A program made the position numbers and the translations under genes. The notes below the pieces were generated by a model, which had not been told where the DNA came from, searched no databases, and saw only the letters and a program-made list of their open reading frames with translations. A stretch of 64,000 nt of DNA from a virus, in IMG/VR virus record IMGVR_UViG_3300045125_000085, positions 32,001 through 96,000 of that record. One strand, given 5' to 3'. Shown here in pieces: positions 1 to 49,977 of the stretch (position 1 is the first letter of the stretch; each line of letters begins with the position of its first letter).

Positions 1-210
1 TTTGCCGAGCTCCTCGGCTATTTCAAGAATTTTTTCTACACTGCTCATAAACCACCTCCATCGGTGCACTTTCTACCGACCGAGCAGATCAGTAGAGGTT
101 GATTGAAAAATCGATCATTCGCTTTTAGCAGAAACCTCCAGCGATGGATCACTCTTAGTATATGGGTTTATAAAAATCTGCACTTCACTAAAGCTAAAAA
201 ATAAAAGTCG

Positions 211-252
211 GCATATCGCCCTATGAGCTCATAGGCTCATAGGGCGATATGC
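211..252. terminator. Long hairpin terminator with TATGC flanks
   Basis: GCATATCGCCCTATGAGC-TCATAG-GCTCATAGGGCGATATGC perfect inverted repeat directly after the stop at 255; minus strand continues CGACTTTTATTTTT. Confidence 0.85.
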
Positions 253-1746: not shown

Positions 1747-2154
1747 CTAAGGGTAATGACGTATTAAGTCCTCACGTACTAAAGTGAGGCTATATAGATC
1801 ATGCCATTGATGGAAAATATACCCTGACATATCGGGCAGTACGAGAGCGATATGATCGTAGAGTTCTTTTTGCAGTATCTCTATCAGGAGTTCAAACTGT
1901 AGCTCTAGGTGATCGTAAGTCCAGGAGCGATAGTGGTCAGGATCGTTATAGTCGATGACGGCATTGAGCTGCGAGTAAAAGATTTCGTTTAAGCGATCTT
2001 CGATATTTAAGTACCTAGGGTAGTTTAAGATCGTCTCGACTATATCGCGGAGTGGGTAAAGATCGTAGAGCTCATGGGAGATAGTCTCATACTCACGGAT
2101 CCAGCTCATGTCTAGCATGATGTACCCGAAAGGTCTACGAGTAGGACGGTACAT
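1747..2154 (-). CDS. Hypothetical protein
   Basis: 135-aa ORF, GAGGT RBS. Confidence 0.7.
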   Translation of the reverse strand: MYRPTRRPFGYIMLDMSWIREYETISHELYDLYPLRDIVETILNYPRYLNIEDRLNEIFYSQLNAVIDYNDPDHYRSWTYDHLELQFELLIEILQKELYDHIALVLPDMSGYIFHQWHDLYSLTLVREDLIRHYP

Positions 2155-3426: not shown

Positions 3427-4404
3427 TTACAAGATTAGGCCGTGCTCATTCAGCTCTTCATCGAGCTGGATGCGTTTGGTCACAGCACTGGTGACGTGCT
3501 CATCTATATCCTTGATGACCTTGGTCAAGCGTTCCAGTACGGATGGGAAGTATCCTGCTACTGTCACGATGTGGAGTGGCAGATCGACAGTGATAGCATC
3601 CTTGAGCTTATCATCGATATAACCAGTAGCTCTGTAACCGACTGGGATGCCGATGGATGCATCAGTTTGAGCGTCTGAGATCGACACAGCGGAGACTACG
3701 CTATGACCACGTGCTAACTCTACCGTCTTGGAGTAAAACTCCAGGTGGGTCAGCTGAGGATCTACAGCCGTCACTTTCTGATAGTTCAGGAAGTTAGACA
3801 GATCTGCACTATCCAACTCGTGATTCTGACCACTAAAGATAGCAGCCAGCAGTACGATGATGGTCTGGACCTTCTGGTCTACAGACCCTCTAGGAGTAGA
3901 GCTACTATTTTCATAGTAGACCATATTCACCGGCTTTTCGATCTTACGGGCAGTAGCCTCATAGCCCTTCAACGTCTTCGAGGTATTCTCTACCTCGATA
4001 CGACTATCAGTACTACCGATCGTAATGACGATAGTCTGCACATCCTTCTTCAGCAACTCACCTGCTATGATCGGTCCGATGACTGAGCCTGAGCCACCTG
4101 ATGCTGAATGTACAATTACATTCAAGTCACCAGGCTTATAGCGGTGTAAGATTTCCTTAGAGCGTTCAGCGATCGCACCTGCATTGCTGTCACGCTTCTT
4201 ACCACTACCGTCTCTATCTTCGATGAGGTATACTCGCTCATCGTTGATATCCAAGTTAGCCCGCTTAAAGTTACTAGCGGATGTATCTATAAAGACGGGT
4301 CTAAATGTAGCAAACCCGTCCGACGGTTTATCCGCATGCCGCATGAGCTGGCTGACGATGTTGATGCCTGCACCACCGGCTGCGTAAATATTCATTTGGT
4401 TCAT
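3427..4404 (-). CDS. phuZ: Phage tubulin PhuZ (tubulin/FtsZ GTPase)
   Basis: N-terminal AGGAGINI, FIDTS, DGSGKKR, tubulin signature SASGGSGS, acidic C-terminal tail ending GLIL; 325 aa. Confidence 0.93.
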   Translation of the reverse strand: MNQMNIYAAGGAGINIVSQLMRHADKPSDGFATFRPVFIDTSASNFKRANLDINDERVYLIEDRDGSGKKRDSNAGAIAERSKEILHRYKPGDLNVIVHSASGGSGSVIGPIIAGELLKKDVQTIVITIGSTDSRIEVENTSKTLKGYEATARKIEKPVNMVYYENSSSTPRGSVDQKVQTIIVLLAAIFSGQNHELDSADLSNFLNYQKVTAVDPQLTHLEFYSKTVELARGHSVVSAVSISDAQTDASIGIPVGYRATGYIDDKLKDAITVDLPLHIVTVAGYFPSVLERLTKVIKDIDEHVTSAVTKRIQLDEELNEHGLIL

Positions 4405-5438: not shown

Positions 5439-5490
5439 GCCGCTAGAAGATACCTGCTCCTCTATTACTTCCTCTACGTTTCTTCCTCCA

Positions 5491-5667
5491 TCACCGCCTC
5501 TTTGCGGCGGTACTTCTATAGTAGGCTAATATAGTCTCTACCATCGACGGCTTGATAGCCTGATTAGCAGGCGTATTCACTACGCTTGCTGTACCGAGGT
5601 TAAGTCCATCATTAGACTCATCCAGTTGCACTACACGTTGCACTACACCGTTGTTCTTAACAGCCAT
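5491..5667 (-). CDS. Small hypothetical protein (putative early gene)
   Basis: GAGGTGG RBS; preceded by GATCTTAGCCTAC motif at 5738-5750. Confidence 0.5.
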   Translation of the reverse strand: MAVKNNGVVQRVVQLDESNDGLNLGTASVVNTPANQAIKPSMVETILAYYRSTAAKRR

Positions 5668-5759
5668 TTTATCCACCTCTATTAGTGATTATTACAAAGT
5701 TACTATCGGCTACATTAGCTTCGTATTGAAAGAGTACGTAGGCTAAGATCACCACTAGT

Positions 5760-6310
5760 ATTTATAACTATAATTAACTCCACTATAAGCTCTATCTAAT
5801 CTTTGCCTAGCACTCGCACTATCGTGCTCATGCACTGCGGCGATAGCTCTCTAGCTTTATTTAATCTCTATTGCACTCGACTACGTCTCATGCGCTGCGT
5901 TAATTGCTAATTTAACATTATCTACTAGCTTGTGTAAAAAATACTGGCACTACATATATTTTGACTGACTTAAATAGCAGGAGGGCGATGGAGTGACTGA
6001 ATAGGAACGAAGGAGACCGACACATACCTGGAAGCAATAGAGCTGCGTGCATATAGCTGACTGCCTACCTATACTAAAAGAAAAGAATAGATAAGCAATC
6101 TAGCCTCATACATACTAGCACTATCCACTACCAAACTAACAATAGATTAGGTACTATAGCTATCTGTTATACTACTCTATCTAGCACTACAGATGCGAAG
6201 CAGTATAAGTATTGGGGGCGTAGCCCCCACTAGTAGTACGATAAAAAAATAGATAAACTATATATCTTTATTAATAAAGATATATTCCTTTAAAGTAAAA
6301 ATAGCTAAGG
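5760..6310. other. AT-rich non-coding divergence region with mini-hairpins (candidate replication origin)
   Basis: No ORF of 60 aa or more; genes diverge; repeated GCACTCG..CTCATGC hairpins, TGCGAAGCA, GGGGGCGTAGCCCCC. Confidence 0.4.
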
Positions 6311-6320
6311 AGCTAGAGAG

Positions 6321-6884
6321 ATGACTACTATCTTAGATTTACAGCCTGAGAGTGAGCAGATTGTAGAGAATAAAGCAGATAGCAAAGAGACAGTATCTCA
6401 GAATACTGTCTCTACTAGTGCTGATGATGATGAGAAAAGTAATAGTGCTAATAAGAGTAAAGATACCATAGTGCTAGATGGACCTTTATCCACTATTTAT
6501 ACTCAAGCGTTACAGATCGCTTATAGTAAAAAAGCTATAGACGCAGAGCATGAGTCAGATATGACGAGTGCAGTCGAAAAGATGGCTATAGATGCGAGTA
6601 TGATGGGCGTGATGGAGGTGATCGATGAGACTGAGAGAGGTAGTGCTAAGCCTTTGTATGTCTATGTGACTGATGATGAGCACTTGGGTGATGGGGCTAC
6701 TGGGGAGGTGTTTGATACTTTGCGGGTGAGTGCTGAGAGTGGGAGGTATAGTGGGGTGTGGTTTTGTACTGAGGATGGGTATAAGTTGGGGCGGAGTCAG
6801 GTGCTGTTGAGTGATTTTGTGTTGGGGTGTGGGGGTAGGGTCTACTATAGCAAAGAGAGCCTGTGGCGGGCTCTAGGAGTCTGA
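6321..6884 (+). CDS. Hypothetical protein, possibly virion head-associated
   Basis: 187-aa acidic ORF, AAGGAG RBS, IVLDGPLSTIYTQAL segment. Confidence 0.7.
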   Translation: MTTILDLQPESEQIVENKADSKETVSQNTVSTSADDDEKSNSANKSKDTIVLDGPLSTIYTQALQIAYSKKAIDAEHESDMTSAVEKMAIDASMMGVMEVIDETERGSAKPLYVYVTDDEHLGDGATGEVFDTLRVSAESGRYSGVWFCTEDGYKLGRSQVLLSDFVLGCGGRVYYSKESLWRALGV

Positions 6885-6885
6885 T

Positions 6886-8112
6886 ATGGCTGGGTTAAAA
6901 GAGGTATTTGATCCTATCTTTGCTAAAGTGAAGTTTAATAGGAGCTTGAGTCATCAGCAGTATTTGTTTCATACTAGCTTTATGAATAAGAATGAGGAGC
7001 ACTTATTGTTTTTGAGTGGGAAGTTGACGGGAGTGCACTTTATTCGGTTTACGCCTAAGGAGTTTGATATCTTTTATAACGATATGCTGGATATCGATGT
7101 AGGTGTGATAAAAGCTGCGGTGAGTACTGTGGAGGCTATCGATCCTCGGTGGGTGGTAGCGAGTGATAGTTTTAATTTAGTCTGTATGTACATGGTGCAT
7201 AGGTGGCTGACTACTCCGGCTTTAGATAATAAAGCTAGGGAGCAGGCAGCTATTAGTGCAGCTTTGATCTTTTTTTATAGATCTGCTGCGGCTATGTTAA
7301 ATGAGTGGTTTAGATATCCGGTCGATGTAGCTTTGGCTGAGGCTACTTATGCTAATTTGAGTAATCGTTATTTGATACGGAAGTTAGAGAGTTGGCAGGA
7401 GGTGCTGATGTATCGAGCTGTGGAGCTGGTGAAGGGCGATAGTGTGCATAGGCGTACCTTTGAGACGTTTAATGACGATTACGCTGTGGTGCAGCTCGTG
7501 AACGATGCTAGAGGGCGTATGGCGGATATCATCAAGAACATCTATGCGGAGATGATGCGTACTCATCAGCGAGGAGAGCGATTACAGACTAGTAAAGATA
7601 CTACGTTGAACATGGATGGAGCTGAAATTTTAAAGGATAAAGTACATGGTCTGACGGATTATACGCAGTACGTGCTGGGGATAATGCATGATGAGGCTAG
7701 TTTCATCAAGAGTGAGTTGATCGATATAGTGAGTAAGATCATGAGCACTATGCAGGTGAGGGGATTTAAGACTAGTCTGGAATGGATGAGTGAGTACTGT
7801 GGGCATCAGCAGTATGGCGTGATCGAGGAGTTTATTAAGTTAGTGTTGATACATAGCTATCATTACTTCTTGACGCATGATAGTGCGGTGATGAATAGTC
7901 GGGATATATCTGGATTGCTAGGACGGTTGAAGAACATTTATGTCAGTAGTCGCAGTAGTGATGCTGATTTGATGAAGCTGAGAGAGCTAGGGAGTGAGAT
8001 AGTAGGTCATGCTACAGGTAAGACTAATGAGCAGACTATGGCGGCTATACGTACTGGATTGATGTTATACATCGTAGTACGGGCTTATACTAAACATCAT
8101 TACAGTGGGTAA
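6886..8112 (+). CDS. Conserved phiKZ-like protein (probably virion-associated)
   Basis: Intact 408-aa ORF, AGGAG RBS; LTGVHFIRF and C-terminal IRTGLMLYIVVRA resemble a conserved phiKZ-like family (from recollection). Confidence 0.7.
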   Translation: MAGLKEVFDPIFAKVKFNRSLSHQQYLFHTSFMNKNEEHLLFLSGKLTGVHFIRFTPKEFDIFYNDMLDIDVGVIKAAVSTVEAIDPRWVVASDSFNLVCMYMVHRWLTTPALDNKAREQAAISAALIFFYRSAAAMLNEWFRYPVDVALAEATYANLSNRYLIRKLESWQEVLMYRAVELVKGDSVHRRTFETFNDDYAVVQLVNDARGRMADIIKNIYAEMMRTHQRGERLQTSKDTTLNMDGAEILKDKVHGLTDYTQYVLGIMHDEASFIKSELIDIVSKIMSTMQVRGFKTSLEWMSEYCGHQQYGVIEEFIKLVLIHSYHYFLTHDSAVMNSRDISGLLGRLKNIYVSSRSSDADLMKLRELGSEIVGHATGKTNEQTMAAIRTGLMLYIVVRAYTKHHYSG

Positions 8113-8115
8113 GAG

Positions 8116-8550
8116 ATGAAGACGGCGATAGAGTTGAGTGAGTTGAATTATGAGTCTTGGTGTGGTACTAGATGGTTATGCTTGAAAGAGTGTAAGAGCT
8201 TGAGTACGGAGCGGTTGTTGTGGTTGTTGGGATTGATGAAGGATGGCGATGTGGAGATCGTGATACCTAGTCATTGCGTATGGGGTACACAGATAGAGAT
8301 AAGACGATGGTTAAGGAGAGAATACTACCTGATGGCTAAGCGGCATAGCGTAGTAGAATTAGTACATTTACACCATACTACCGAGACTGCTATGGGGGAT
8401 GGGATACCTGTGCTGATGGGAGAGACTCATGATGAGTGGGATGAGGTGCTGATGGCGTGGGCGAGTCATATCGCTCGTAAGGTGAAGTTTATAATCATGG
8501 TGAGGCGTGTATGTCGAGAGTCTACCGGATGCGAGTGCCAGATAGGGTGA
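8116..8550 (+). CDS. Hypothetical protein
   Basis: 144-aa ORF starting 3 nt after the previous stop. Confidence 0.6.
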   Translation: MKTAIELSELNYESWCGTRWLCLKECKSLSTERLLWLLGLMKDGDVEIVIPSHCVWGTQIEIRRWLRREYYLMAKRHSVVELVHLHHTTETAMGDGIPVLMGETHDEWDEVLMAWASHIARKVKFIIMVRRVCRESTGCECQIG

Positions 8551-9233
8551 TACCTCTTGTAGATGAGGTAGAGGTCGCATTAGAGGCCGATCAGTACGGG
8601 TTAAAGGATAATTACCTCTACCACTACAGCTTAGAGAAATACGAGTGTCTATTGACCTTAGAGGAGCAATGGAATCGAAAGATCAAAGTGCCTACTAAGG
8701 AAGACTTAGATTACAATACACAGCGTAAAGTCTTTCGGTATGATGAATTTCCGTATAGTCAGCACTTGAGTTTTCTATTAGATCCATTACCAGTAGACAT
8801 TATTGCTAAATTTAAAGGTGGTAATAATAAGCTGTATAATGCTAAGTCGTGTTGGGAGTACAAAATAGATATAGCTGCTTTTAAGGATAATATCAACTAC
8901 TACATGCTAGCTGAGAATGATGTAAATAATTTCTTTGCTTATAATCTTTGGTTAGATGTAGAGTTTCCTGGTAAGCACTTTATGTACTTTAAGACTAGAG
9001 ACTTAATTAATAAGCTAGCTGGTAATATCGGCTACGATTACTTGAGTCTTAGGAGTGCAGTGTTTAAATATAAAGGTAGGACACGTGAGGCTTTTAAGGA
9101 GCTGACTGAGAGCGATGAGTTTGAGTGGGTGAAGACGAAAGGCATGTATGCACCGACGGTACCGCATCTAATGGCGTATCCTAAGATCGGTGTGATCGAG
9201 TATGCTGATGTGAAAAAAATAAAGCTACTGTGA
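8511..9233 (+). CDS. Hypothetical protein
   Basis: 240-aa ORF ending at hairpin 9247-9283. Confidence 0.7.
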   Translation: MSRVYRMRVPDRVIPLVDEVEVALEADQYGLKDNYLYHYSLEKYECLLTLEEQWNRKIKVPTKEDLDYNTQRKVFRYDEFPYSQHLSFLLDPLPVDIIAKFKGGNNKLYNAKSCWEYKIDIAAFKDNINYYMLAENDVNNFFAYNLWLDVEFPGKHFMYFKTRDLINKLAGNIGYDYLSLRSAVFKYKGRTREAFKELTESDEFEWVKTKGMYAPTVPHLMAYPKIGVIEYADVKKIKLL

Positions 9234-9246
9234 AAAGGAAAGGGAG

Positions 9247-9283
9247 ATATAGCCCTGAGAGCACTAAGGCTCTCAGGGCTATA
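9247..9283. terminator. Bidirectional terminator between convergent genes
   Basis: ATATAGCCCTGAGAGC..GCTCTCAGGGCTATAT. Confidence 0.85.
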
Positions 9284-9293
9284 TGACGGCTAT

Positions 9294-9674
9294 TCAAACC
9301 ACATGTCTATTTCTGTTACTGGTGTCAGCTACTTCATTATCTTCACCGAGATCTTCTATCTGGCAAGCTAAGATCCAGAAGCTCGTCAGATCCTCAGGTA
9401 GTCTAGGATCGTTAGGTACAGCATAACTGTAGAGATTATTGCTAGTCATCCCTACTGTGAACTGAAAGTCATCAGCGACCTCTATGCAGTCGTGGCTGTC
9501 GATGAGCTTGACGAGCACATCAGGACGAGCCTTGATGTGAGCTTTATGGACGCGCTTAATAGCATCCTCACTGTTACAGATCATCGCCTTTTTGCTTTGG
9601 TTTTGCTTGATGTGATAATCAGCATTAACATTGAAGCTAAGACCCAGAATGATAAAAGCGAATAAAGTGCGCAT
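9294..9674 (-). CDS. Putative secreted/periplasmic protein
   Basis: MRTLFAFIILGLSFNVNA signal peptide, three Cys, AGGAG RBS. Confidence 0.7.
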   Translation of the reverse strand: MRTLFAFIILGLSFNVNADYHIKQNQSKKAMICNSEDAIKRVHKAHIKARPDVLVKLIDSHDCIEVADDFQFTVGMTSNNLYSYAVPNDPRLPEDLTSFWILACQIEDLGEDNEVADTSNRNRHVV

Positions 9675-9775
9675 ATGTGTTTCTCCTAATTAGAGAGTTG
9701 TTGATAAAGGTACTAGACGGCTAGGTCCAAACACAATATATAGGCTTCTATTATCCTATGGATTTAAGCAGTAGA

Positions 9776-9805
9776 GAAAAAAGAGCACCGGTGAGGGTGC
9801 TCTTT
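9776..9805 (-). terminator. Canonical intrinsic terminator after the ring nuclease gene
   Basis: Minus strand AAGAGCACC-CTCACC-GGTGCTCTT followed by a T-tract. Confidence 0.8.
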
Positions 9806-9847
9806 GAAGGGAGCTTCATGCTCCAGCGAAGGTAACGCTATGAAAAA

Positions 9848-10195
9848 CTATTTACTGGTTGTTACCAGGATGAAGCGGAACTCTGCGCCTTCCGGCAGTA
9901 CTGTGGTGCCCTCAGGAAGACGTGGCCCATTGTACTGGGCCACCAGGAGGATATCGTCATGTTCCAGCTTGATGTTGACCCGATTGCTCGGGATATTTGC
10001 ACCAAGCAGATTGCTCAAGATGACCGCAGTGTCGGGATGACCGACACCGCTAACGAAGCGACCATCTGCGATCTCTGCACCAACGATGCTAGCTGCATCG
10101 CTAGCATCGATGTCGCGGTACGACAGTGTACCGCCATCAAAGCTAGCAGAGATCATGGAGAAGGAAAATGCGTTGGCGATGTAGAACTTGCTCAT
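9848..10195 (-). CDS. acrIII-1: AcrIII-1 family viral ring nuclease (DUF1874, STIV B116-like)
   Basis: YIANAFSFSMI, FVSGVGHPDTA (GH), NRVNIKL (NR), RLPEG (R,E); 115 aa; GGAGG RBS. Confidence 0.85.
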   Translation of the reverse strand: MSKFYIANAFSFSMISASFDGGTLSYRDIDASDAASIVGAEIADGRFVSGVGHPDTAVILSNLLGANIPSNRVNIKLEHDDILLVAQYNGPRLPEGTTVLPEGAEFRFILVTTSK

Positions 10196-10310
10196 AGTTA
10201 CCTCCAAAGGGTAAAAGCTAAGCTATGTAGATAGAGCATATCCACATAGCTGGAAAGGGTGTAGTGATCTCAGCAGTAGGCTAAGATCATAAGTAATATG
10301 TATAGCTATA
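10196..10310 (-). promoter_or_regulatory. Early-type promoter plus structured 5' leader (copy A)
   Basis: TACATATTAC (cf. phiKZ early TATATTAC), then ATGATCTTAGCCTACTG hairpin, CACCCTTTCCAG linker, second hairpin, SD hairpin; second copy at 49467-49575. Confidence 0.7.
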
Positions 10311-10374
10311 TTTCTTTTCAATCCAAGTTTAAAGCTATACGGCATATCGGGCAGAATGATCTGCCCGATAGTAG

Positions 10375-10641
10375 TTAATCACCTGAGTTTTCTTCATCCT
10401 GCTTTTTCAGCTCTGCATCTGTCAGTCGCTTATAGGCAGGTAGAGGTGCTCTGTACAGGAGCGCTATTGCGGTCAAGGTAACCGCCGTGGTAGGAGTAAG
10501 GTCGACCATGCTGTACGTCATGACCCAAAAGTTATGCCCAGGTACATCTCTACCATTGACAGTCTGGATCGCATAAGCATATTCGCTTATTAGCAGCCAG
10601 TACTCTGAAGGTACCTTTATTGCTAGTCTGTCCACAGACAC
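10375..10641 (-). CDS. Hypothetical protein
   Basis: 88-aa ORF followed by hairpin 10346-10371. Confidence 0.45.
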   Translation of the reverse strand: MSVDRLAIKVPSEYWLLISEYAYAIQTVNGRDVPGHNFWVMTYSMVDLTPTTAVTLTAIALLYRAPLPAYKRLTDAELKKQDEENSGD

Positions 10642-10949
10642 CTGAATCTATCAGTCGTTTAATACGCTAGTACATCTACCTTTTAGCATAGTAGACGAGT
10701 TGTGATACTGATTGCTCAGTACTACAGACTGTGGTGGTTTTTGTTTCCGTATCGTTACGGCGTCTGAAGCCATAATCAGCATCAGCAGTAGAGTCAATGT
10801 GTGACGAGTAGAAAAGAGTATCATTGCGCGCATAAGAGTACCTCTAAAAGTAAAATGAGTAAAACGAAAGCTATCTTACCATTACTTCACTTTGTGAAAA
10901 AATATAGAAGACATGCTATAGCCGATTACTAAATCACAGAGAGACTGTT

Positions 10950-13173
10950 ATGACGATACTGTTTTTAAACGACTGGAAAAACTACCCAAACGCTATCGTA
11001 GATACTGAGACGAAGAACTCTAGCTTTATACGGTATAGTGCACTACCCGCGAGATGGGCGTCAAGAACCATGCTTTTCCTTTGCAGCTACATAACCCTAG
11101 CTTACAAGGTATAGATCCATTTAGCCTACAGTTGACGATACAGCAGATGGCTGATATAGCCATAGAGTGTAAACGTAACTTCTTCTACTACGCTAGAGAG
11201 ATCATTCGAGTACCACCACCTTCAGGACCAGGCGTGACGTACCTAGCTGCTAATCGTGGTAATATCGCTTTATTCTGGTTGTTCTTAAACCATGTGACGA
11301 CTATACTCATACAGCCACGACAGACTGGGTAAGTCTGTATCTACAGATGCGCTACAAGTCTATCTACTGAACCTACGCTGTCAAAACACTACGATCAATT
11401 TGCTGACTAAAGATGATGATCTACGTAGCCGTAACTTTGACGCGTATTAAGGATATCTCTAGTGAGCTACCATGGTATCTACAGCTACGCTCTAAGAAAG
11501 ATATCGCTAATACGGAAGAGATCACTATTAAGACTTTGAATAACCGCTATAAAGGACACTCTACCGCATCAGTCACCTAAACAAGCCTTAAACGTAGTGT
11601 AGAGGTCTGACGAGTCCTGTCTTCCACATAGACGAGTTTGCTTTTCTGTACAATATCGAAATCATGCTACCTGCTGCATTAGCAGGTGGTGGTGCTGCTA
11701 GAGACGTAGCAGCTGAGCGAGGTGAGCCGTATGGTACTATCTATACGACGACTGCAGGTAAGAAGAACGATAGAGATGGTAAGTATGCGTATCAGATCAC
11801 TACCTGCTCAGCTGTCTGGAGTGAGAGATTCTTAGACGTAGCGGATCCTACTGACTTTAGAGCATGTGAATACGAAGATCAGCACCTAAAGGCGAGTATC
11901 GTGTCAACTGTACTTTCAGTCATAGACAACTAGGCTATAGTGATCATTGGCTCAAACGTAAGCTAGAAGATACTAATGCTACTGGTGATGATGCTAATCG
12001 TGACTTCTTCAACGTATGGACGTCAGGTACGCAGTCTATGCCCTTACCGACTTACCTCATGGAGCGTATCCATCAGTCACGTCAGTTAGATAATCATGCT
12101 GAGATCACTAGACCATACGGCTACATTACGCGCTGGTATATACCTGAAGCTACTATTAAAACGACTATGCAGGAATACAGTACGCTGATGGGGCTAGATA
12201 CTAGTGACGCCGTAGGTAGAGATGACATAGGTATGGTCATAAGGCATGTAGTCACCGGTGAGATACTCGCTGCTGGTAATTACAATGAGACTAACCTCAT
12301 CACCTTTGCTGAATGGATAGCACTGATGTTAGAGCAGTATCCGAAGATGACATTGATCATAGAGCGTAGATCATCCGGTGCAGCTATCTTAGACTACGTG
12401 ATACTCATGCTAGTCAATAAAGGCATAGATCCATTTAAACGTATCTACAATAAAGCCGTACAGGATGCCGATGAAGTACCGGAACGCTTTAAAGAACTCC
12501 AGCGTCCGTTTCATATACGTCATCAGGAAGTATATGTCAAGTATCGTAAGCTGTTTGGCTTCGCTACCTCAGGTACAGGGACTACGAGTCGTACTGAGCT
12601 CTATACGACGACATTACTAGCAGCTGCTAAGAATACAGGCGATAGAGTCAAAGATCCAGTGCTAGTCGATCAGAATACTAGGACTCACTACCAAGAACGG
12701 TAGGATAGACCATGCCGATGGTGAGCATGACGATGTCTGTATCGCATGGCTGTTGACGTACTGGTTATTGAGCAATGGCAAGCACATGGACTTCTATGGC
12801 ATCAATAGCCGTGAGATCTTAAGAGAGATCAAGCAACAAGATCCTGATCAGAAACCAGAGTATGTCTATCAGCGTAGATTACAACTACAGATACGTCAGC
12901 GTATAGAACAACTCACTGAGCAGATCAAGAATGAGCATGATGAGTATGTGGTGCATAAGCTAGAACGTGAACTAATGGGCTTAGGACATACAGATCGTAC
13001 TGGATGACGGTGAGACCTTTAGTATCGATACTCTGCTGAATGAGCTAAGGCTTACAGAAACAATCTAAGAGTCAGCAGCAGCGCAGCATGGCGTTAGGTA
13101 GACAGAACCCATATGGCGGTGGCACTGGATACTTCATAAGCAGCCTATGCAGCAAGGCAATCGTTACTGGTAA
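10950..13173 (+). CDS. terL: Terminase large subunit (phiKZ gp25-like), broken by several indels
   Basis: MTILFLNDWKNYPNA start; Walker A QPRQTG(KS) across an indel near 11329; HIDEFAF Walker B; YTTTAG; RNase H-fold nuclease with MGLDTS, LIIERRS and DGEHDD. Confidence 0.88.
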
Positions 13174-20139: not shown

Positions 20140-22221
20140 ATGGCATCTATATATCTCATCAATGCCGCACCCATGGTGCAGCAACTGGGTACTCGGGATT
20201 TGAGTACCGTCCAGGTCCCACGTGAGCCCGAACAATATGCGCAGCATTTACCGAAATGCTTTCTGTTTGCCCAATCAGGACCGTTGACGCCTCAACTCGT
20301 ATCCGGTGCTGAAGCAGAACGCATGTACGGTACCAAGACGTTTGATCTGCGTAGCAAATTCGCTACTCATCAAACCGTCTTTACCAAGCTCATGTTTGCA
20401 GAAGATAACAACGTCATGGTCCAACGTGTCATCTCTGATGATGCGGGTCCTGAAGCGAATGTTTTGCTGTCCTTAGACGTACTGCCGACTAAAGTCGATT
20501 TGTACGAACGTGATCCGTCTGGCTTGATCAAGCTGGATGCGATGGGTGCACCGATTAAGAAAGGGACTGCAGATGGCTTTAAAGTCATGTGGGTCACTAG
20601 CCATATCAGCAATAAAGCTAATATCGGTAACTTCGGTCAAGCCGCAGTAGTCGCTGGCTCACAGACTGATCCAGTCTCAGGTGCTCAGTCACAGCGCTAT
20701 CCTATCTTTGAATTTAAAGCTTCATTCTTAGGTGAATCTGGCAATGACGGTGGTCTGCGTATCTGGGCTCCTACGCTCGATACTGAAGCCAATATGCCGA
20801 CTGCCATGATGGCTAAGGAACGTGCTTATCCTTATTATGTCAGTATGATCCGTAGGCCGGATTCGTCCAGCTCACCGAAAGTCGTGCAGACCCAGATGGG
20901 TGATCAGTACGTCTCAGTAGTGCTGAAAGAAGGCGTGATCGATCCGATTACTGATCGTGAAATGTTCATGGGCGATATCCTGCTGAACAACTATCAGAAC
21001 GTCACTGATCCTGCTTATCCGAAAGTATTCGGTGACTTCAGCACGATGGCGATCTATGAAGAAAACCTGGCTGAGCTTGCTGGAACAGTTCCATGCGGCT
21101 GAAACGCCGTATATCGATCTGTTCTCAGACTTCACTAGCGATATTGGCAGACATCCATCTGTTCAACATCATTTCAGGCGTATCTAGCCAGAACGTACCT
21201 TACCATACTTTCCAGTTGGTAGATGGTGCTGGTAGCATTCGTCCGACTCAGTTCTCTAACATCTTTGCAGCTGGTGGCAGCGATGGCACCATCAGCAATG
21301 CCGTGTTAGGTGACTTAGTCAAGAACTACATGCTGGGCTACTTAGATCCGAATAGCGAACTGCAAGAACTGGCTCTGAACATCGAATCCATTATCTACGA
21401 TACTGGCTTCCCGTTACAGACTAAGTATGCCCTGGCTAATATCATCGGTCTGCGTAAAGATACCTTCGTAGTATTGGGTACTTACGATGTCGATGGTCCG
21501 GTCATGACGCAGTCAGAAGAACATTCTGTCGCTGTAGCGCTGCGTACTCGTCTGCAGATGTTCCCTGAATCTGATTACTTCGGTACGCCGGTCATGCGTG
21601 GCATGATCGTAGGTCGCAGTGGTACTTTACGGAATAGCCAGTATAAAGGCAGACTGCCGTTGACGTTTGAAGTAGGTATCAAAGCTGCACGCTACATGGG
21701 TGCTGGTGATGGTCGCTGGAAGAACGGTCGTAACTTTGATGGTGCGCCTGGATCAGTCGTAGAAAACATGACTGATATCTCGATCACTTGGGTGCCGACG
21801 ACTGTACGTAACAAGAATTGGAGCGTAGGTCTGAACTGGGTACAAGCGTTTGATCGTCGTAGCTTCTTCTTCCCTGCGTTGAAGACTGTATACAACGATG
21901 ATATGTCTGTACTGAACAGCTTCATTACGGCTATGGCTATCTGTACTTTGAACAAGGTCACTGCAGCCGCATGGCGTCAGTTCTCTGGCGTATCTGGTAT
22001 CAGCAATGGCTTGTTGATTGATCGCACTAATGCTTTCATTAAGTCACAGACCCAGGGTCGTTTTGATGAGTCGCTTTGTGATTGAACCGGCTGCCTTCTT
22101 CACCGATACCGATGTACTGAATGGCTTTAGCTGGACAGTCCCAGTCAAGATCTATGCTAACAACATGAAGACTGTAATGACTTCTTATGTTGAAGCTTAT
22201 CGTGCCGGTGGTACGGCTTAA
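20140..22221 (+). CDS. Tail sheath protein (phiKZ gp29-like), two indels
   Basis: INAAP..GTRDLS start, SIIYDTGFPLQTK, FPESDYFGTP, KIYANNMKT C-terminus; about 690 codons. Confidence 0.88.
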
Positions 22222-22241: not shown

Positions 22242-23299
22242 ATGTCACGTATAACTAATGCCATTATTGGCCAATACATCGAGCATGGGCTCAATGGCAC
22301 GACCGCACCCATGTTGGACTTCTCCTACGGCGGTCAGCATGGCTATTCACCTAATCTAGTCGAATGGGTTTCTAACCAAGCCTATATTCGTCGTAACCTG
22401 ATTTGCATTCTGTTAGAAGCACCAGGTTTCTTTCAATTAATGCAGGATCCTACTGTCTGGGTACGTTCTTTGAAATCATTTGGTAGAGTTACATGCTCGT
22501 ACTATCGAAGGTTTTAATGCAGCTCTGACATGTAGAATTCGCCGAACATCCGGTCGGTGGCGCCGGTGAACTCCAGCAAGAAGTCACTGATGTCAAGCGG
22601 GCTCGTACTGAACCAGTATTTGGCTTTGTCGAAAAATACGGTCGCCCTATTCAGACTTTCTTAGAAATGTGGATACGCTACGGCATGATGGATCCGGATG
22701 CTAAGATCGCACTGGCTGGTACTTTAACAGGTACTGGTACTACTGCTACCAGAGGCACTTATACAGGGCAAAACGGCAGGTACTTTATCTGCAGTTAATG
22801 GACGCCCCAGCTGATATTCTGGCAGATTGGTCTACTATGACTTGTTTGTTTATTGAGCCTGATAACTTACATCGTCGCGTAGTGAAGGCTTGGGTCACGA
22901 CGAACATGATGCCTAAGGAAACAGGACCAATCGAAGGCAAACGTGATTTGACCTCAGCTTCTGAATTGCTAGAACTGTCTATTCCGTTTACCGGTATCAG
23001 TCAGTATGGCTTAGGTGTAAACAAATTAGCCCAAGCTATTTTAAATAACATCAACGTCACTAATGCGGTACCGTTCCTGCACAAGGCATTTATTAACACC
23101 GCTGATAGTAACGTAGCTAGTTTGAGCTACAACTTACGCTGCTGATAATTATACTGCCACGTATACTGCAGTAGATAATCGCGGTTACTTCAACAATGCT
23201 GAAAATAATGCCGGTGTGAGAGTCAGTGGTGAGAAGTCAGTTGATGCCACTACACCCGATGCCACTACACCTGACGCCACTACACTCCTCCTAACTTAA
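22242..23299 (+). CDS. Tail tube protein (phiKZ gp30-like), frameshifted
   Basis: GGQHG..EWVSNQAYIRRNLICILLEAP and FIEPD..AWVTTNMMP motifs; directly after sheath; end approximate. Confidence 0.82.
23243..23287 (+). repeat. 3x15-bp repeat (DATTP)
   Basis: GATGCCACTACACCC / GATGCCACTACACCT / GACGCCACTACACTC. Confidence 0.85.
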
Positions 23300-23458
23300 T
23301 AATATCTAATATTTTCTAAAGCCCTGGCCGGTAAAGCCAGGGCTTTATGCCGCGTAGCTGAAAAAAGAAAGACGGCATAAAGGGTGCAGCTTTCGCCACA
23401 CCCTAGTGAGCTAGAGGATTATCTTAAGGAAAACGCCAAGTGTAACATTGCATTCATG

Positions 23459-23758
23459 TTATCCATCCTTACTTTGTCTATAGACCGATAGACGCATAAG
23501 AGCTTCTCCCAGTCGATTTGTTTGAGCGGGCTGTCTGTCAAAGATGATATTGCCGTTGTCTCTTACCTCGATGACGACTTCGCCATCTTCACGTTTCTCC
23601 ACGATGATCTCCATGCCGTCCTTAGCATAGACGACGAGATTCTGAATCTCATCGTCACCGGTCGCCAGCCGAGCTAACTCAGCGATTGTAGTTTCTGGGA
23701 CATCCATCACGTTCCAGTCGTCCAAAACCAAATCGGTAGTGAGCGTAACTTTGCTCAT
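23459..23758 (-). CDS. Hypothetical acidic protein
   Basis: 99-aa ORF, GAGGT RBS, flanked by hairpins. Confidence 0.65.
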   Translation of the reverse strand: MSKVTLTTDLVLDDWNVMDVPETTIAELARLATGDDEIQNLVVYAKDGMEIIVEKREDGEVVIEVRDNGNIIFDRQPAQTNRLGEALMRLSVYRQSKDG

Positions 23759-23834
23759 TTATATTTACCTCGTTAGTATTGTAGAGCATATAGCCTACTG
23801 CACTAGATGTACAGTAGGCTATGCATGATTAGCT

Positions 23835-24307
23835 TTAAGCTTTTGCCAGTTCTTCCATCTGGCTAGAAATCAGATCACGTACTGACTTCAGTTGACCTGC
23901 GTTCTTACCGGCTCTAGTTTCAAACGTGGTGCTGATCACACCGTGCTTGGTGACTTCAGCACCGTCACCAGCCAGTCTATTCGGGTAAGTGCGGCTACGA
24001 TCCCAAGTATGAGAGATCGTGTCCTTATGGCCGCCACGCAGGCTCAGGCTCGCATTAGCGAACCCAGCTATCCGACTGTGCTGCCTGATTAGCCATCTGA
24101 CCAAAGAGCATGTGCTGACGCTGCTACGAAGTCAGCATCGTAGTTCTTGATCACTTCTACCGTTTCAGGCTTTACACCTTCCGGTAAGTTAGCGTCGTAC
24201 AGACTAGTCTCACTCTTTTCCTTAGCTACTCCAGTCTTGGTATCCAAATCCAAGCCTTCCATAATCTTGGTGCTCAAAGAAAGTACGCTGTCAGTAATCT
24301 TGCTCAT
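23835..24307 (-). CDS. Conserved phiKZ-like hypothetical protein, one indel
   Basis: MSKITDSVL start with GAGGAG RBS; YDANLPEGV motif; continues in ORF 23835-24104. Confidence 0.7.
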
Positions 24308-24507
24308 GGTTTTATCTCCTCTTACGGGATTAGCGGTGGTGTAGTTAAGATCCATACAGTGTCCACCGATCACACTGCTAGATTCAAAGCATACGGTGCA
24401 AACCTTATTTTTACACCGAGCAGGTAAGCTCATTAGTACTATATGAGCCTGAAAACATTTGCAAACGGCATAGACGCTAGACGGATAGTCCGTCTAGCGT
24501 CTTATGC

Positions 24508-25299
24508 TCACCAGCTTTTATACTTCGGTGCTTTCTTGCTATCCATAGCTTGGACTATTTGCCGTAAGTCCGCATACACATCCTGGTGCTCCATAGCCCA
24601 CTGACCCGTAGGACGTGAGATCAGTTGTTCTAACTGATGCCTAGTAATGACCTGATCGTAGAGCGGATCTAGTATCGGTACTTCAGTCGGTTGTTTAGCT
24701 TCTAATGCAGGAGCATCCCACTGATTAGCGATACTGATACCGGGCTCATTGACCCAATCAAACGTCTGGATAAAGACTAGCGTACGATGATTGACTCTAC
24801 CGACTCTAGTATCTCTAGTCAAAGCTCTGATAGAGAAGCAGACGTTCTCATTCGGATTACTTAAAGCAGCTTCTAAGGCAGGGCCTTTAGCTCCAGATGG
24901 CTTTAATTTAGCCATGATAGGTACGATGCCAGGATTAGTACTCGTACCTACACCAGGCTTATAGTCAGGATCGAGCCAGATCTCTTTAAAATGTACACAG
25001 ACATTAGGCTCGTCTATGCTACAGACTCTATCCATAAAGGCAGTAGCTGACATACCTGGAGTAGGTTTAGGATGCCCTACCTCACCTTTCAGACAGCCAT
25101 TCTGGATCCTACGCATAAAGCTACTAGACGATTCAAACAACTGTTTAGCGCCATCTAAGACGTAGAACTCCCCAGCTGAGTTAAATGCATTTAACCCACC
25201 GACTATCATCGTCCTATAGCCATCGGCATCAGGGACGATCACACCCTGCTTGCCCTTACTGCTTAACTTAGTAGCAGTGAATTTAATTAAGCTCGCCAT
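24508..25299 (-). CDS. Prohead maturation serine protease (phiKZ gp175-like)
   Basis: GGLNAFNSAGEFY, LKGEVGHP (His), CFSIRA (Ser), TFDWVNEPGI; 263 aa; synteny. Confidence 0.88.
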   Translation of the reverse strand: MASLIKFTATKLSSKGKQGVIVPDADGYRTMIVGGLNAFNSAGEFYVLDGAKQLFESSSSFMRRIQNGCLKGEVGHPKPTPGMSATAFMDRVCSIDEPNVCVHFKEIWLDPDYKPGVGTSTNPGIVPIMAKLKPSGAKGPALEAALSNPNENVCFSIRALTRDTRVGRVNHRTLVFIQTFDWVNEPGISIANQWDAPALEAKQPTEVPILDPLYDQVITRHQLEQLISRPTGQWAMEHQDVYADLRQIVQAMDSKKAPKYKSW

Positions 25300-30800: not shown

Positions 30801-32086
30801 ATAGGGCTCTTCAGATTCACCATACGCCATCGCAGTACGCATCAAAGAGCGATAATCTGCAGCACTCATTAACCCATACTCAGCCTGCTCTTCTATCTGT
30901 GCTTTTAATTGCTCCAGTACCGGAAACTCTTGATGGATTTCCTCTAATAGCTTCTTGTGGTTCTCTGCTAAGGTAGTCTCATCATCGCCTTTAGCTAATT
31001 CCTTATGTCCGGTACCGCTAGATAGCTTTTGTTCGATCGCTCGTTTCTCAATCGTCTCTAGTACGGATAAGTCTTTATCTACGGCTTCTTCATCATTGAC
31101 GACAGTCTCCTCATGGATCACGCCAGTAGCTGCTTCCAGCCTGGATACTCGCGTCGACGTTACCCGTACGGATCTCATCGGTATCAGCTACGACTGCTTG
31201 ACCCTGTACCTGCATCAGCATGCGCACCATGTACTTCTGCAACTGCATAGGTTTAAAATGCAGATCAGCCGTATTCCAGTTACTATGGTCTTCAGCTTTA
31301 GCATTCTCAAAGAAGCTATGCCAATAGCCCATGTTGATCACAAACCACTTACCACTATGTTGAAAGATCAAATTGACTTTATTCAGATCTTTAGCTTTCC
31401 AGTCTTGCCACCAGTTAGTACCATTTAGCTGTCCTACCCATTTCCATAACTCTAAGATAAACCACTTCTCAGGCTGATCTAGTATCTTTAAAGTACTACT
31501 CGTGACTGCTTTAGCGTGAGTATTTAAAGTAGACACACTCGGCAATACATCCGGTACGGTTAAAATACGATACTGCTGACGTTCACTACTTTCAGCAACT
31601 ATCTTAGCTTCATCCCACAGCGTCTGCTCTAAGTCAGCCCACCTTTGATATTCGGCTAAAGGGACATCGCTATACTGGTACTGATCGATAGGAAAGTTAT
31701 AGTTCAGCAACAATAAGTGCTGAGGGTTTTCATCCTTTAGTCCATGGCTCTCTCAGGTATTTGAACTCTTTATGCGCATGCTGGTAGTCTTGTACTTGTG
31801 CGATATTGAAACGCTCCATCCGACGACTCATGACGCCTTTCGTCATATGCAACTGACTAGTATGCAACTGCTCCGCATGGTCGATGACGATGCTGCCTTT
31901 AGGTCTACTTTTTAAATAAGGTAAAGAAGCATCAGGTCCTTTTACACTAGTATTATAGTCTAAGAAGTGGAATAAGCTATTCATCGGAAAGTTAAGCTTA
32001 TCCATAGGGAACACACGAGGAAACACGATCTGGTTAGACCGCATGACACCGTACTGTTTATAGAAGGCATTGTAGGTAAGCAACAT
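27817..32086 (-). CDS. Virion RNA polymerase beta-like subunit (phiKZ gp178-like), many indels
   Basis: QKVDLPIRKI, SEATSDSGDVG, GIQHGH..PYVRTGYE, GVGDKGVFANQMKT, IDAIF; about 1420 codons. Confidence 0.88.
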
Positions 32087-49466: not shown

Positions 49467-49575
49467 AGCACACCTCCTAAGGTATGGTAATAAGTCCATA
49501 CAGCTGAACGACCGTATAGACTGGAAAGGGTGAATGATCTAGCCACCAGTAGGCTAAGATCATCTTTAATATATG
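49467..49575 (-). promoter_or_regulatory. Early-type promoter plus structured 5' leader (copy B)
   Basis: CATATATTAAAG then ATGATCTTAGCCTACTG hairpin, CACCCTTTCCAG, second hairpin, SD hairpin. Confidence 0.7.
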
Positions 49576-49617
49576 GGATTATGTTTTTCTGCACTTTAAA
49601 CTAGAGCTTTAGCTAGT

Positions 49618-49977
49618 TTACTCCACATAAATGCCTTTACCGATATCGATAAACTGCAGCAACTCTCGCATCTGGTCATACGTAGCAGTCAGGTTAAATA
49701 GCGTCTCATCCATAGTCTCGTCTAGGACTAGTACGCGTATCCACATAGATCATCCATGCTGATGCGGTATAAGTCTTTACTATCAGGAAACCGAAATAGC
49801 TTAAAGCCATGATACTGCTTAGCGACACATTCTTTTAAACAACTACTTAAAGCCGCCATGATCGTCCACGGCAATGACCAGACTGCATACTGCGTACCAG
49901 TCTGTTTTACTTTAAACTCTACGCCATGACTGATCTATACGTAGAGTATGCTGACGGTGCTTAATAATCGTTTTCAT
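49618..49977 (-). CDS. Hypothetical protein (frameshifted)
   Basis: GGAG RBS + MKTIIKH; coding-like fragments to ..GKGIYVE stop. Confidence 0.45.

Follow-up and report, generated by a model that had tools for sequence, protein, structure and literature searches.

The phage nucleus is seen as protecting almost universally against defences that target DNA, and RNA-guided type III CRISPR represents its documented weak point. It has been shown that a type III CRISPR system protects Serratia against a nucleus-forming phage, whereby exported mRNA is sensed and abortive infection follows through NucC activated by cA3, and that the same system is also protective when it is coupled to the cA4-activated effector TtCsm6 (10.1101/2022.06.20.496707). 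Its authors also expect ring nucleases of viruses to promote the swapping of effectors (10.1101/2022.06.20.496707). This literature, including the result obtained with a cA4-activated effector, agrees with a preliminary description of the DNA analysed here, in which RNA-targeting type III systems had been stated to stay effective against the nucleus.

The closest described relatives of the present gene belong to the AcrIII-1 (DUF1874) family. In SIRV1 gp29, His47 is an absolutely conserved general acid whose replacement (H47A) causes a more than 2500-fold loss of catalytic power, R85 is a lid residue, and the side chains of N8, S11, N13, S49, T50, R66 and Q81 contact cA4 (10.1101/778746). With the DUF1874 protein of Thermoanaerobacterium phage THSA-485A, type III immunity has been demonstrated to be lost when it depends on cA4, but not when it depends on cA6 (Athukoralage et al., bioRxiv 10.1101/778746 / Nature 2020). 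A study of SIRV2 gp37, an AcrIII-1 homologue, in its native system reported no anti-CRISPR effect, with the gene expressed in the middle to late phase, and a second role has been described for this protein, namely inhibition of a host lysine methyltransferase, a partner that is restricted to Crenarchaeota. For nucleus-forming jumbo phages, the other counter-measures are the chimallin shell and Tad1 in phiKZ, the latter being the only system that AntiDefenseFinder finds on phiKZ. The literature searched reports neither a type III CRISPR nor a cyclic-oligoadenylate counter-measure for nucleus-forming jumbo phages, and none of its papers joins DUF1874, AcrIII-1 or a ring nuclease with a jumbo, nucleus-forming or Chimalliviridae carrier.

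The DUF1874 gene considered here lies in a stretch of 64,000 nucleotides, called the window below, which corresponds to bases 32001-96000 of a linear IMG/VR record of 144,006 bp (G000) with an estimated completeness of 49%. The assignment of this record to the phiKZ-like phages, already made in the preliminary description, is borne out by a PhuZ tubulin at window 3427-4404 (E 9e-86), the beta subunit of a virion-type RNA polymerase (E 7e-162), split RNA polymerase genes, a tail sheath and virion proteins, and by a chimallin (phrog_4795) that is encoded outside the window by two adjacent ORFs (E 1e-38 and 1e-31). One virion protein is common to 289 phiKZ-like GenBank records, the best match being that of Burkholderia phage FLC9 with 45% identity. 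These genes support a phiKZ-like, nucleus-forming carrier, and its genome is likely to be of jumbo size (>200 kb), the 144,006 bp of the record representing about half a genome. The DUF1874 gene is surrounded by phage genes and has no cas gene as a neighbour, in line with viral encoding of its product. The record contains numerous frame breaks: the terminase gene (window 10950-13050) shows at least six frame switches in 2.1 kb when compared to the intact 767-aa orthologue of a related IMG/VR contig (L086), and the tail sheath (window 20140-22085) and chimallin (G000 23217-24966) genes are each split into two ORFs. As these are essential genes, the breaks look like assembly indel errors rather than biology, and ORF calls in this record therefore need caution. 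The DUF1874 ORF is itself unbroken, although single-residue errors within it are possible in a record so riddled with frame breaks.

The gene and the features around it are, in window coordinates:

8103-10908, between the phrog_2921 gene and the terminase gene: variable region holding the cassette (blastn against L086)
9780-9805, minus strand: intrinsic terminator with a 10-bp stem (5 GC pairs), a 6-nt loop and a U-run (terminator scan; fold z -3.81)
9848-10195, minus strand: gene of the DUF1874/AcrIII-1 family, product P0001 (ORF, Pfam, AF2, Foldseek)
10201-10205, minus strand: Shine-Dalgarno sequence GGAGG, 5 nt spacer to the ATG (direct sequence reading)
10196-10290, minus strand: structured 5' leader with hairpin 1 at 10289-10265, hairpin 2 at 10251-10221 and a small stem proximal to the Shine-Dalgarno sequence (folding)
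10291-10355, minus strand: AT-rich promoter-like part of a repeated element, core CATATTAC at 10300-10293 (nhmmer profile)
10346-10369, minus strand: 10-bp hairpin lacking a U-run, between the upstream small ORF and the promoter element (direct sequence reading)

The protein P0001 is encoded by an intact ORF of 115 aa that runs on the minus strand from an ATG at 10195 to a TAG stop at 9850-9848; a longer version of the frame starting with TTG at 10207 is possible, but this start has no ribosome-binding site. All four motifs by which the family had been recognized from the letters alone are present, i.e. NAFS (residues 8-11), GH (52-53), NR (71-72) and RLPEG (92-96). The profile search that had been proposed as a check yielded a clear match, contrary to the refuting outcome of no DUF1874 hit, to PF08960 (STIV_B116-like, formerly DUF1874), which is the single Pfam-A match of P0001 (E 9.2e-12, 45.4 bits against a gathering cut-off of 26 bits, spanning profile positions 2-88 of 101) and which was also recovered by a genome-wide search, while in PHROGs the protein matches phrog_5063 (E 8.4e-19). 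A sequence search against all PDB entries returned only AFV3-109, STIV B116 and SIRV1 ORF114/AcrIII-1 (2X4I, and 6SCF with cA4). The AlphaFold2 monomer model, built on 43 homologues, has a mean pLDDT of 95.4 and a pTM of 0.87, and in a Foldseek comparison with the PDB it matches 6SCF, 2J85, 2X4I, 2J6B and Csx1-Crn2 (8Y7F) with TM values of 0.73-0.83 and a probability of 1.00, with no fold outside DUF1874 below E 0.2; the structural comparison that had been suggested as a check thus gave matches to 6SCF, 2X4I and 2J85. Because sequence, fold and active site all agree, membership of P0001 in the AcrIII-1/DUF1874 family is established. Neither the protein family nor its chemistry is new; the novelty concerns context and ecology, not mechanism.

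The agreement of the active site was assessed by transferring the residues of SIRV1 gp29 to P0001 through the HMMER alignment. The catalytic H47 corresponds to H53 and is kept, and the same holds for N8 (N8), S11 (S11), T50 (T56), R66 (R72), Q81 (Q87), R85 (R92) and E88 (E95), the P0001 residue being given in brackets, whereas N13 is changed to S13 and S49 to D55. Besides the catalytic histidine, seven of the nine cA4-contact residues are consequently retained (six of eight if E88 is left out). The retained active-site and contact residues of P0001 are invariant or nearly so in an alignment of 43 homologues, where N8, S49, G52, R72, Q87, R92, L93 and G96 show no variation and the conservation of H53 and E95 reaches at least 90%. 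The two contact changes count against the ring-nuclease interpretation preferred below, although D55 is the bacterial-type residue and forms part of the GHxDTA consensus of the bacterial branch. The in silico counterpart of the histidine-mutant experiment suggested earlier hence finds H53 and most cA4 contacts conserved, and on these sequence grounds P0001 is predicted to be enzymatically active on cA4.

Comparison with the characterized proteins shows where the present gene stands. Its nearest homologue in a cultured phage is the DUF1874 protein of THSA-485A (45.5% identity over 96% of the query, E 6e-19), which likewise stands alone, measures about 100-115 aa and belongs to a tailed bacteriophage, with the same bacterial-type motifs NAFS, GHxDTA, NR and RLPEG and a TxLPxG extension. 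However, THSA-485A, with 42 kb, is temperate or a prophage, has a Firmicute host and forms no nucleus, whereas the carrier of P0001 is phiKZ-like, encodes chimallin and its own RNA polymerases, and has the DUF1874 gene wired to an early-type promoter-leader of its own. SIRV1 gp29 (2X4I; 6SCF with cA4), STIV B116 (2J85) and AFV3-109 (2J6B) share the fold with P0001 (TM 0.73-0.83), which keeps the catalytic histidine and the Asn, Ser, Thr, Arg, Gln and Arg contacts to cA4; these are, on the other hand, proteins of archaeal viruses that are only 25-31% identical to P0001, and they lack its additional C-terminal LPEGAEF strand, a trait typical of the bacterial branch. Crn2, as represented by the Csx1-Crn2 fusion of Marinitoga (8Y7F/8Y7G), has the same domain (Foldseek E 1e-6, TM 0.80) and presumably the same chemistry, but it is encoded in type III CRISPR loci, is often fused to Csx1 and serves as a self-limiting off-switch, unlike P0001, which is a stand-alone ORF of 115 aa in a variable region of a phage with no cas genes nearby. 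With the chimallin shell and the Tad1 of phiKZ, finally, the gene would have in common an accessory anti-defence function in a phiKZ-like carrier.

The organization of the locus as a single-gene cassette with a leader, as originally proposed, is confirmed by the intact ORF, the promoter-leader element on its 5' side and the intrinsic terminator on its 3' side. The terminator does lie on the strand of the gene, while the epithet host-style that had been attached to it is merely descriptive. In a similar way, the gene has a promoter of its own in the sense of a phage-specific repeated motif, but not in the sense of a sigma-70 site, as no sigma-70-like site is found upstream on the strand of the gene. 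The leader of about 95 nt folds with a minimum free energy of -35.9 kcal/mol (z -5.67), and Rfam reveals no known RNA family in the window between 9000 and 11000. K-mer counting, by which long words common to the leader and to other sites of the record were detected, first traced an element of approximately 140 nt, to which the DUF1874 locus contributes the interval 10355-10219 (nhmmer, E 1e-27). There are 10 strong copies of this element in the 144-kb record, with E values of 1e-9 to 1e-31 and all on the same strand, in addition to weaker, partial copies. The strong copies are:

window 10219-10355, 5685-5818, 49490-49629 and 72-221, minus strand
record G000 143753-143889, 137028-137166, 133077-133210, 117501-117640, 5439-5579 and 1902-2044, minus strand

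Each element combines an AT-rich motif that resembles CATATTAC with two hairpins, of which the first is a conserved GATCTTAGCC hairpin and the second covaries; the layout of the leader is common to 8-10 copies, and the pairing of hairpin 2 is maintained by compensatory changes in 8 copies. On the 3' side of every strong copy, a Shine-Dalgarno sequence follows within 10-30 nt and precedes a small ORF. Apart from the DUF1874 gene, the ORFs behind the element have no Pfam or PHROG match, with one weak exception to Peptidase_M48 that concerns a 171-aa ORF behind the copy at 72-221 (G000 31554-32069, minus strand, ending at window position 69; E 8e-5, 23 bits against a cut-off of 20.3).

It has been described that all jumbo phages which encode RNA polymerases carry a conserved, bioinformatically recognizable AT-rich motif of about 10 nt upstream of early operons, and that this motif, where tested, is the promoter of the virion RNA polymerase in early infection (PMC7598289). 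In phiKZ the early promoter motif is TATATTAC, with close variants in 201phi2-1, OBP and EL (PMC7058600, table 2). The CATATTAC core resembles these phiKZ-type early promoters, and since comparable motifs precede early operons in jumbo phages with RNA polymerases, the repeated element is probably the early-promoter cassette of the carrier, comprising a promoter and a structured leader. By the same motif resemblance, the DUF1874 gene would be a monocistronic early gene. This context matters because SIRV2 gp37, expressed too late, gives no native anti-CRISPR effect; an early-type promoter would, by inference from the motif, answer the published caveat about the timing of expression.

With respect to its surroundings, the cassette belongs to the variable portion of the genome. 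When aligned by blastn to L086, the flanks at 6462-8102 and 10909-12832 are conserved with about 70% nucleotide identity, and the phrog_2921 protein of the two phages shows 78% amino-acid identity, while the interval 8103-10908 measures 2.8 kb here versus 1.1 kb in L086, i.e. it is 1.7 kb longer in the present record. No PF08960 match is present at the syntenic site of L086 or anywhere on its 50-kb contig. The DUF1874 gene is consequently an accessory gene: it occupies a variable region, and the closest relative lacks it at the syntenic site. In addition to the cassette, the interval contains a paralogue of a secreted protein (9294-9674), two further ORFs and what appears to be a broken secreted-protein gene (10375-10833). 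In L086, a gene for a secreted protein of 130 aa abuts the terminase gene, with about 110 bp between the two. The segment at 10375-10833 (minus strand) carries a 60-aa ORF with a signal-peptide-like N-terminus and an 88-aa ORF that resembles residues 80-105 of the 130-aa protein, and together these two ORFs look like a broken copy of that terminase-adjacent gene. The intact 126-aa gene at 9294-9674 (minus strand) encodes a paralogue with 42% identity to the 130-aa protein.

The DUF1874 gene had also been described as more GC-rich than its neighbours. This enrichment is real (53.2% versus 45.7% for the record, and 60% versus 47% at third codon positions), but it makes the gene only a mild outlier (z about 2): with z values of 2.1-2.4 it falls within the top 2.5% of 348-bp windows, and 26 other regions reach at least 52%. 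A strong compositional anomaly is excluded by these values, and the elevated GC content is compatible with horizontal gain without being strong evidence for it. Near-identical DNA of the locus was not found in cultured phages. Interpretation of the locus as an anti-defence island is likewise not supported, given that the neighbours and the leader-driven genes have no Pfam or PHROG match other than the weak one to Peptidase_M48.

The distribution of the gene was surveyed in cultured and uncultured phages. A tblastn search of P0001 against 50,697 records of cultured phages, sensitive to homologues at 27-34% identity, gave 40 matching records, which represent archaeal viruses, THSA-485A, Hydrogenobaculum and Aquificae viruses and a Methanobacteriales virus; none of these 40 is a phiKZ-like phage. 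Within IMG/VR, 270 contigs encode a relative of P0001, and of the best 80 among them 14 exceed 100 kb, including two that encode chimallin as well, namely G005 (223,650 bp with terminal repeats) and G006 (261,198 bp). The phage type was surveyed separately in 50 sampled phiKZ-like IMG/VR records, which were found with a virion-protein alignment used in place of a three-sequence chimallin alignment, the latter giving only two loci as a seed. PF08960 is present in two of these 50 records, G019 with two copies and G022, which also encodes chimallin, and both are among the closest relatives of the phage in the window (54-55% marker identity); it is present in none of the 15 sampled records that are at least 90% complete. 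The survey that had been called for therefore depicts DUF1874 as rare but recurrent in phiKZ-like phages, with four other uncultured carriers and no cultured one.

All six DUF1874 proteins of jumbo phages keep N8, GH(A/P)DTA, R72, Q87 and RLxEG, and their identity between lineages is 38-47%, no higher than the 46% to THSA-485A. The genomic position of the gene differs between phiKZ-like carriers. The DUF1874 tree is poorly resolved, and a single clade of the six jumbo-phage copies is not rejected (p-AU 0.60), for which reason multiple acquisitions are not claimed and independent acquisition cannot be read from the tree. The cellular homologues, found at 55 loci, provide no signal of host or donor: their identity does not exceed 46%, and they are spread widely across phyla, including Clostridia, Patescibacteria, Proteobacteria and others, a scatter that counts against the interpretation preferred here.

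According to that interpretation, the DNA of the carrier would be shielded from DNA-targeting defences inside the chimallin shell, and its cytoplasmic mRNAs would still trigger type III CRISPR, with Cas10 making cA4 and thereby switching on abortive-infection effectors. The DUF1874 gene would be transcribed alone from the early-type phage promoter with its structured leader, so that the ring nuclease would be made in the cytoplasm soon after injection and would drain cA4 before the effectors fire. Most likely, as in characterized relatives, a P0001 homodimer would bury one cA4 molecule at the dimer interface and cut it into linear di-adenylates, His53 acting as the general acid and Arg92 closing the lid. 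We consider it likely that P0001 is a functional cA4 ring nuclease of early, cytoplasmic action which removes the type III messenger that the shell cannot guard against. The earlier proposal that this gene covers the gap left by the nucleus gains support from the family, the active site, the carrier with chimallin and PhuZ, the type III literature and, by inference, the early-type promoter, and it is reasonable to suppose that the host uses cA4 signalling.

The alternative that survives best, although we regard it as unlikely, is that P0001 is an active ring nuclease with no native anti-CRISPR role, either because timing or dose is wrong or because the host signals through cA3 or cA6, and that its benefit derives from another activity such as binding of a host protein. 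SIRV2 gp37, which natively has no anti-CRISPR effect, provides a precedent that also counts against the preferred interpretation, the timing proposed here being deduced from motif resemblance only; yet the methyltransferase partner of gp37 is limited to Crenarchaeota, and the present gene is placed behind an early-type promoter motif. Furthermore, the Serratia defence against jumbo phages runs on cA3 and NucC, and a cA4-specific AcrIII-1 is not expected to remove cA3. No cultured phiKZ-like phage carries DUF1874 either, nor does any of the 15 near-complete uncultured ones that were sampled, which shows that it is clearly dispensable for the nucleus-forming lifestyle. Against this, the cA4-contact residues and the catalytic histidine are kept in all six jumbo-phage copies in spite of identities of just 38-47%, indicating selection on the ring-nuclease site itself.

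It is more improbable still that P0001 degrades a cyclic oligonucleotide unrelated to CRISPR, such as a CBASS-type or other cA4-like signal, and would be an anti-CBASS or anti-signalling enzyme. Nucleus-forming phages should face any cytoplasmic signalling or abortive-infection defence, and some ring nucleases are reported to bridge CRISPR and CBASS signals (10.64898/2026.10.26.761840); however, the characterized DUF1874 enzymes are specific for cA4 and leave cA6 immunity unaffected, and the residues of the cA4 pocket are conserved in P0001. It seems very improbable that P0001 is carried along without function, or that it binds nucleic acids and plays no part in defence. Several database homologues still bear the old family label of DNA binding protein, and frame breaks are numerous in the record, but the ORF is intact and of full length, with a Shine-Dalgarno sequence, a promoter-leader of its own and a terminator; its catalytic residues are conserved, and the breaks, hitting essential genes, look like assembly indels.

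If P0001 does act as an early cA4 ring nuclease, it would represent the first known means of countering the one CRISPR type that gets past the nucleus strategy, closing the documented type III gap, and it would offer direct genomic evidence that cA4-based type III immunity shapes nucleus-forming phages in nature; hosts with cA4-activated effectors are predicted by the same interpretation. The locus would also illustrate how foreign anti-defence genes are plugged into the early promoter-leader cassettes of the phage itself. The novelty lies in the setting, i.e. a carrier that encodes chimallin, an early-type expression cassette belonging to that carrier, and recurrence in a few uncultured relatives, a combination that is biologically logical. 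On balance, the evidence leans towards a lineage of chimallin phages in which early-expressed cA4 ring nucleases are maintained specifically to counter type III CRISPR, with at least five uncultured members, sometimes two copies, and two copies at a fixed site after nrdB.

At this last site, the DUF1874 gene is located directly downstream of nrdB (ribonucleotide reductase beta) in both the second copy of G019 (L181 1489-1827) and the copy of G006 (L055 9869-10207). A conserved 153-aa protein with a GSNLAGRHGKGAA motif and no Pfam match adjoins the gene in the first copy of G019 (L179 1933-2394) and in G022 (L180 825-1286), and in both of these cases the DUF1874 gene lies between a secreted protein of 243 aa and this 153-aa protein. 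The other copy of G019 is on L179, and each copy follows a terminator hairpin and an AT-rich motif of its own with a shared leader.
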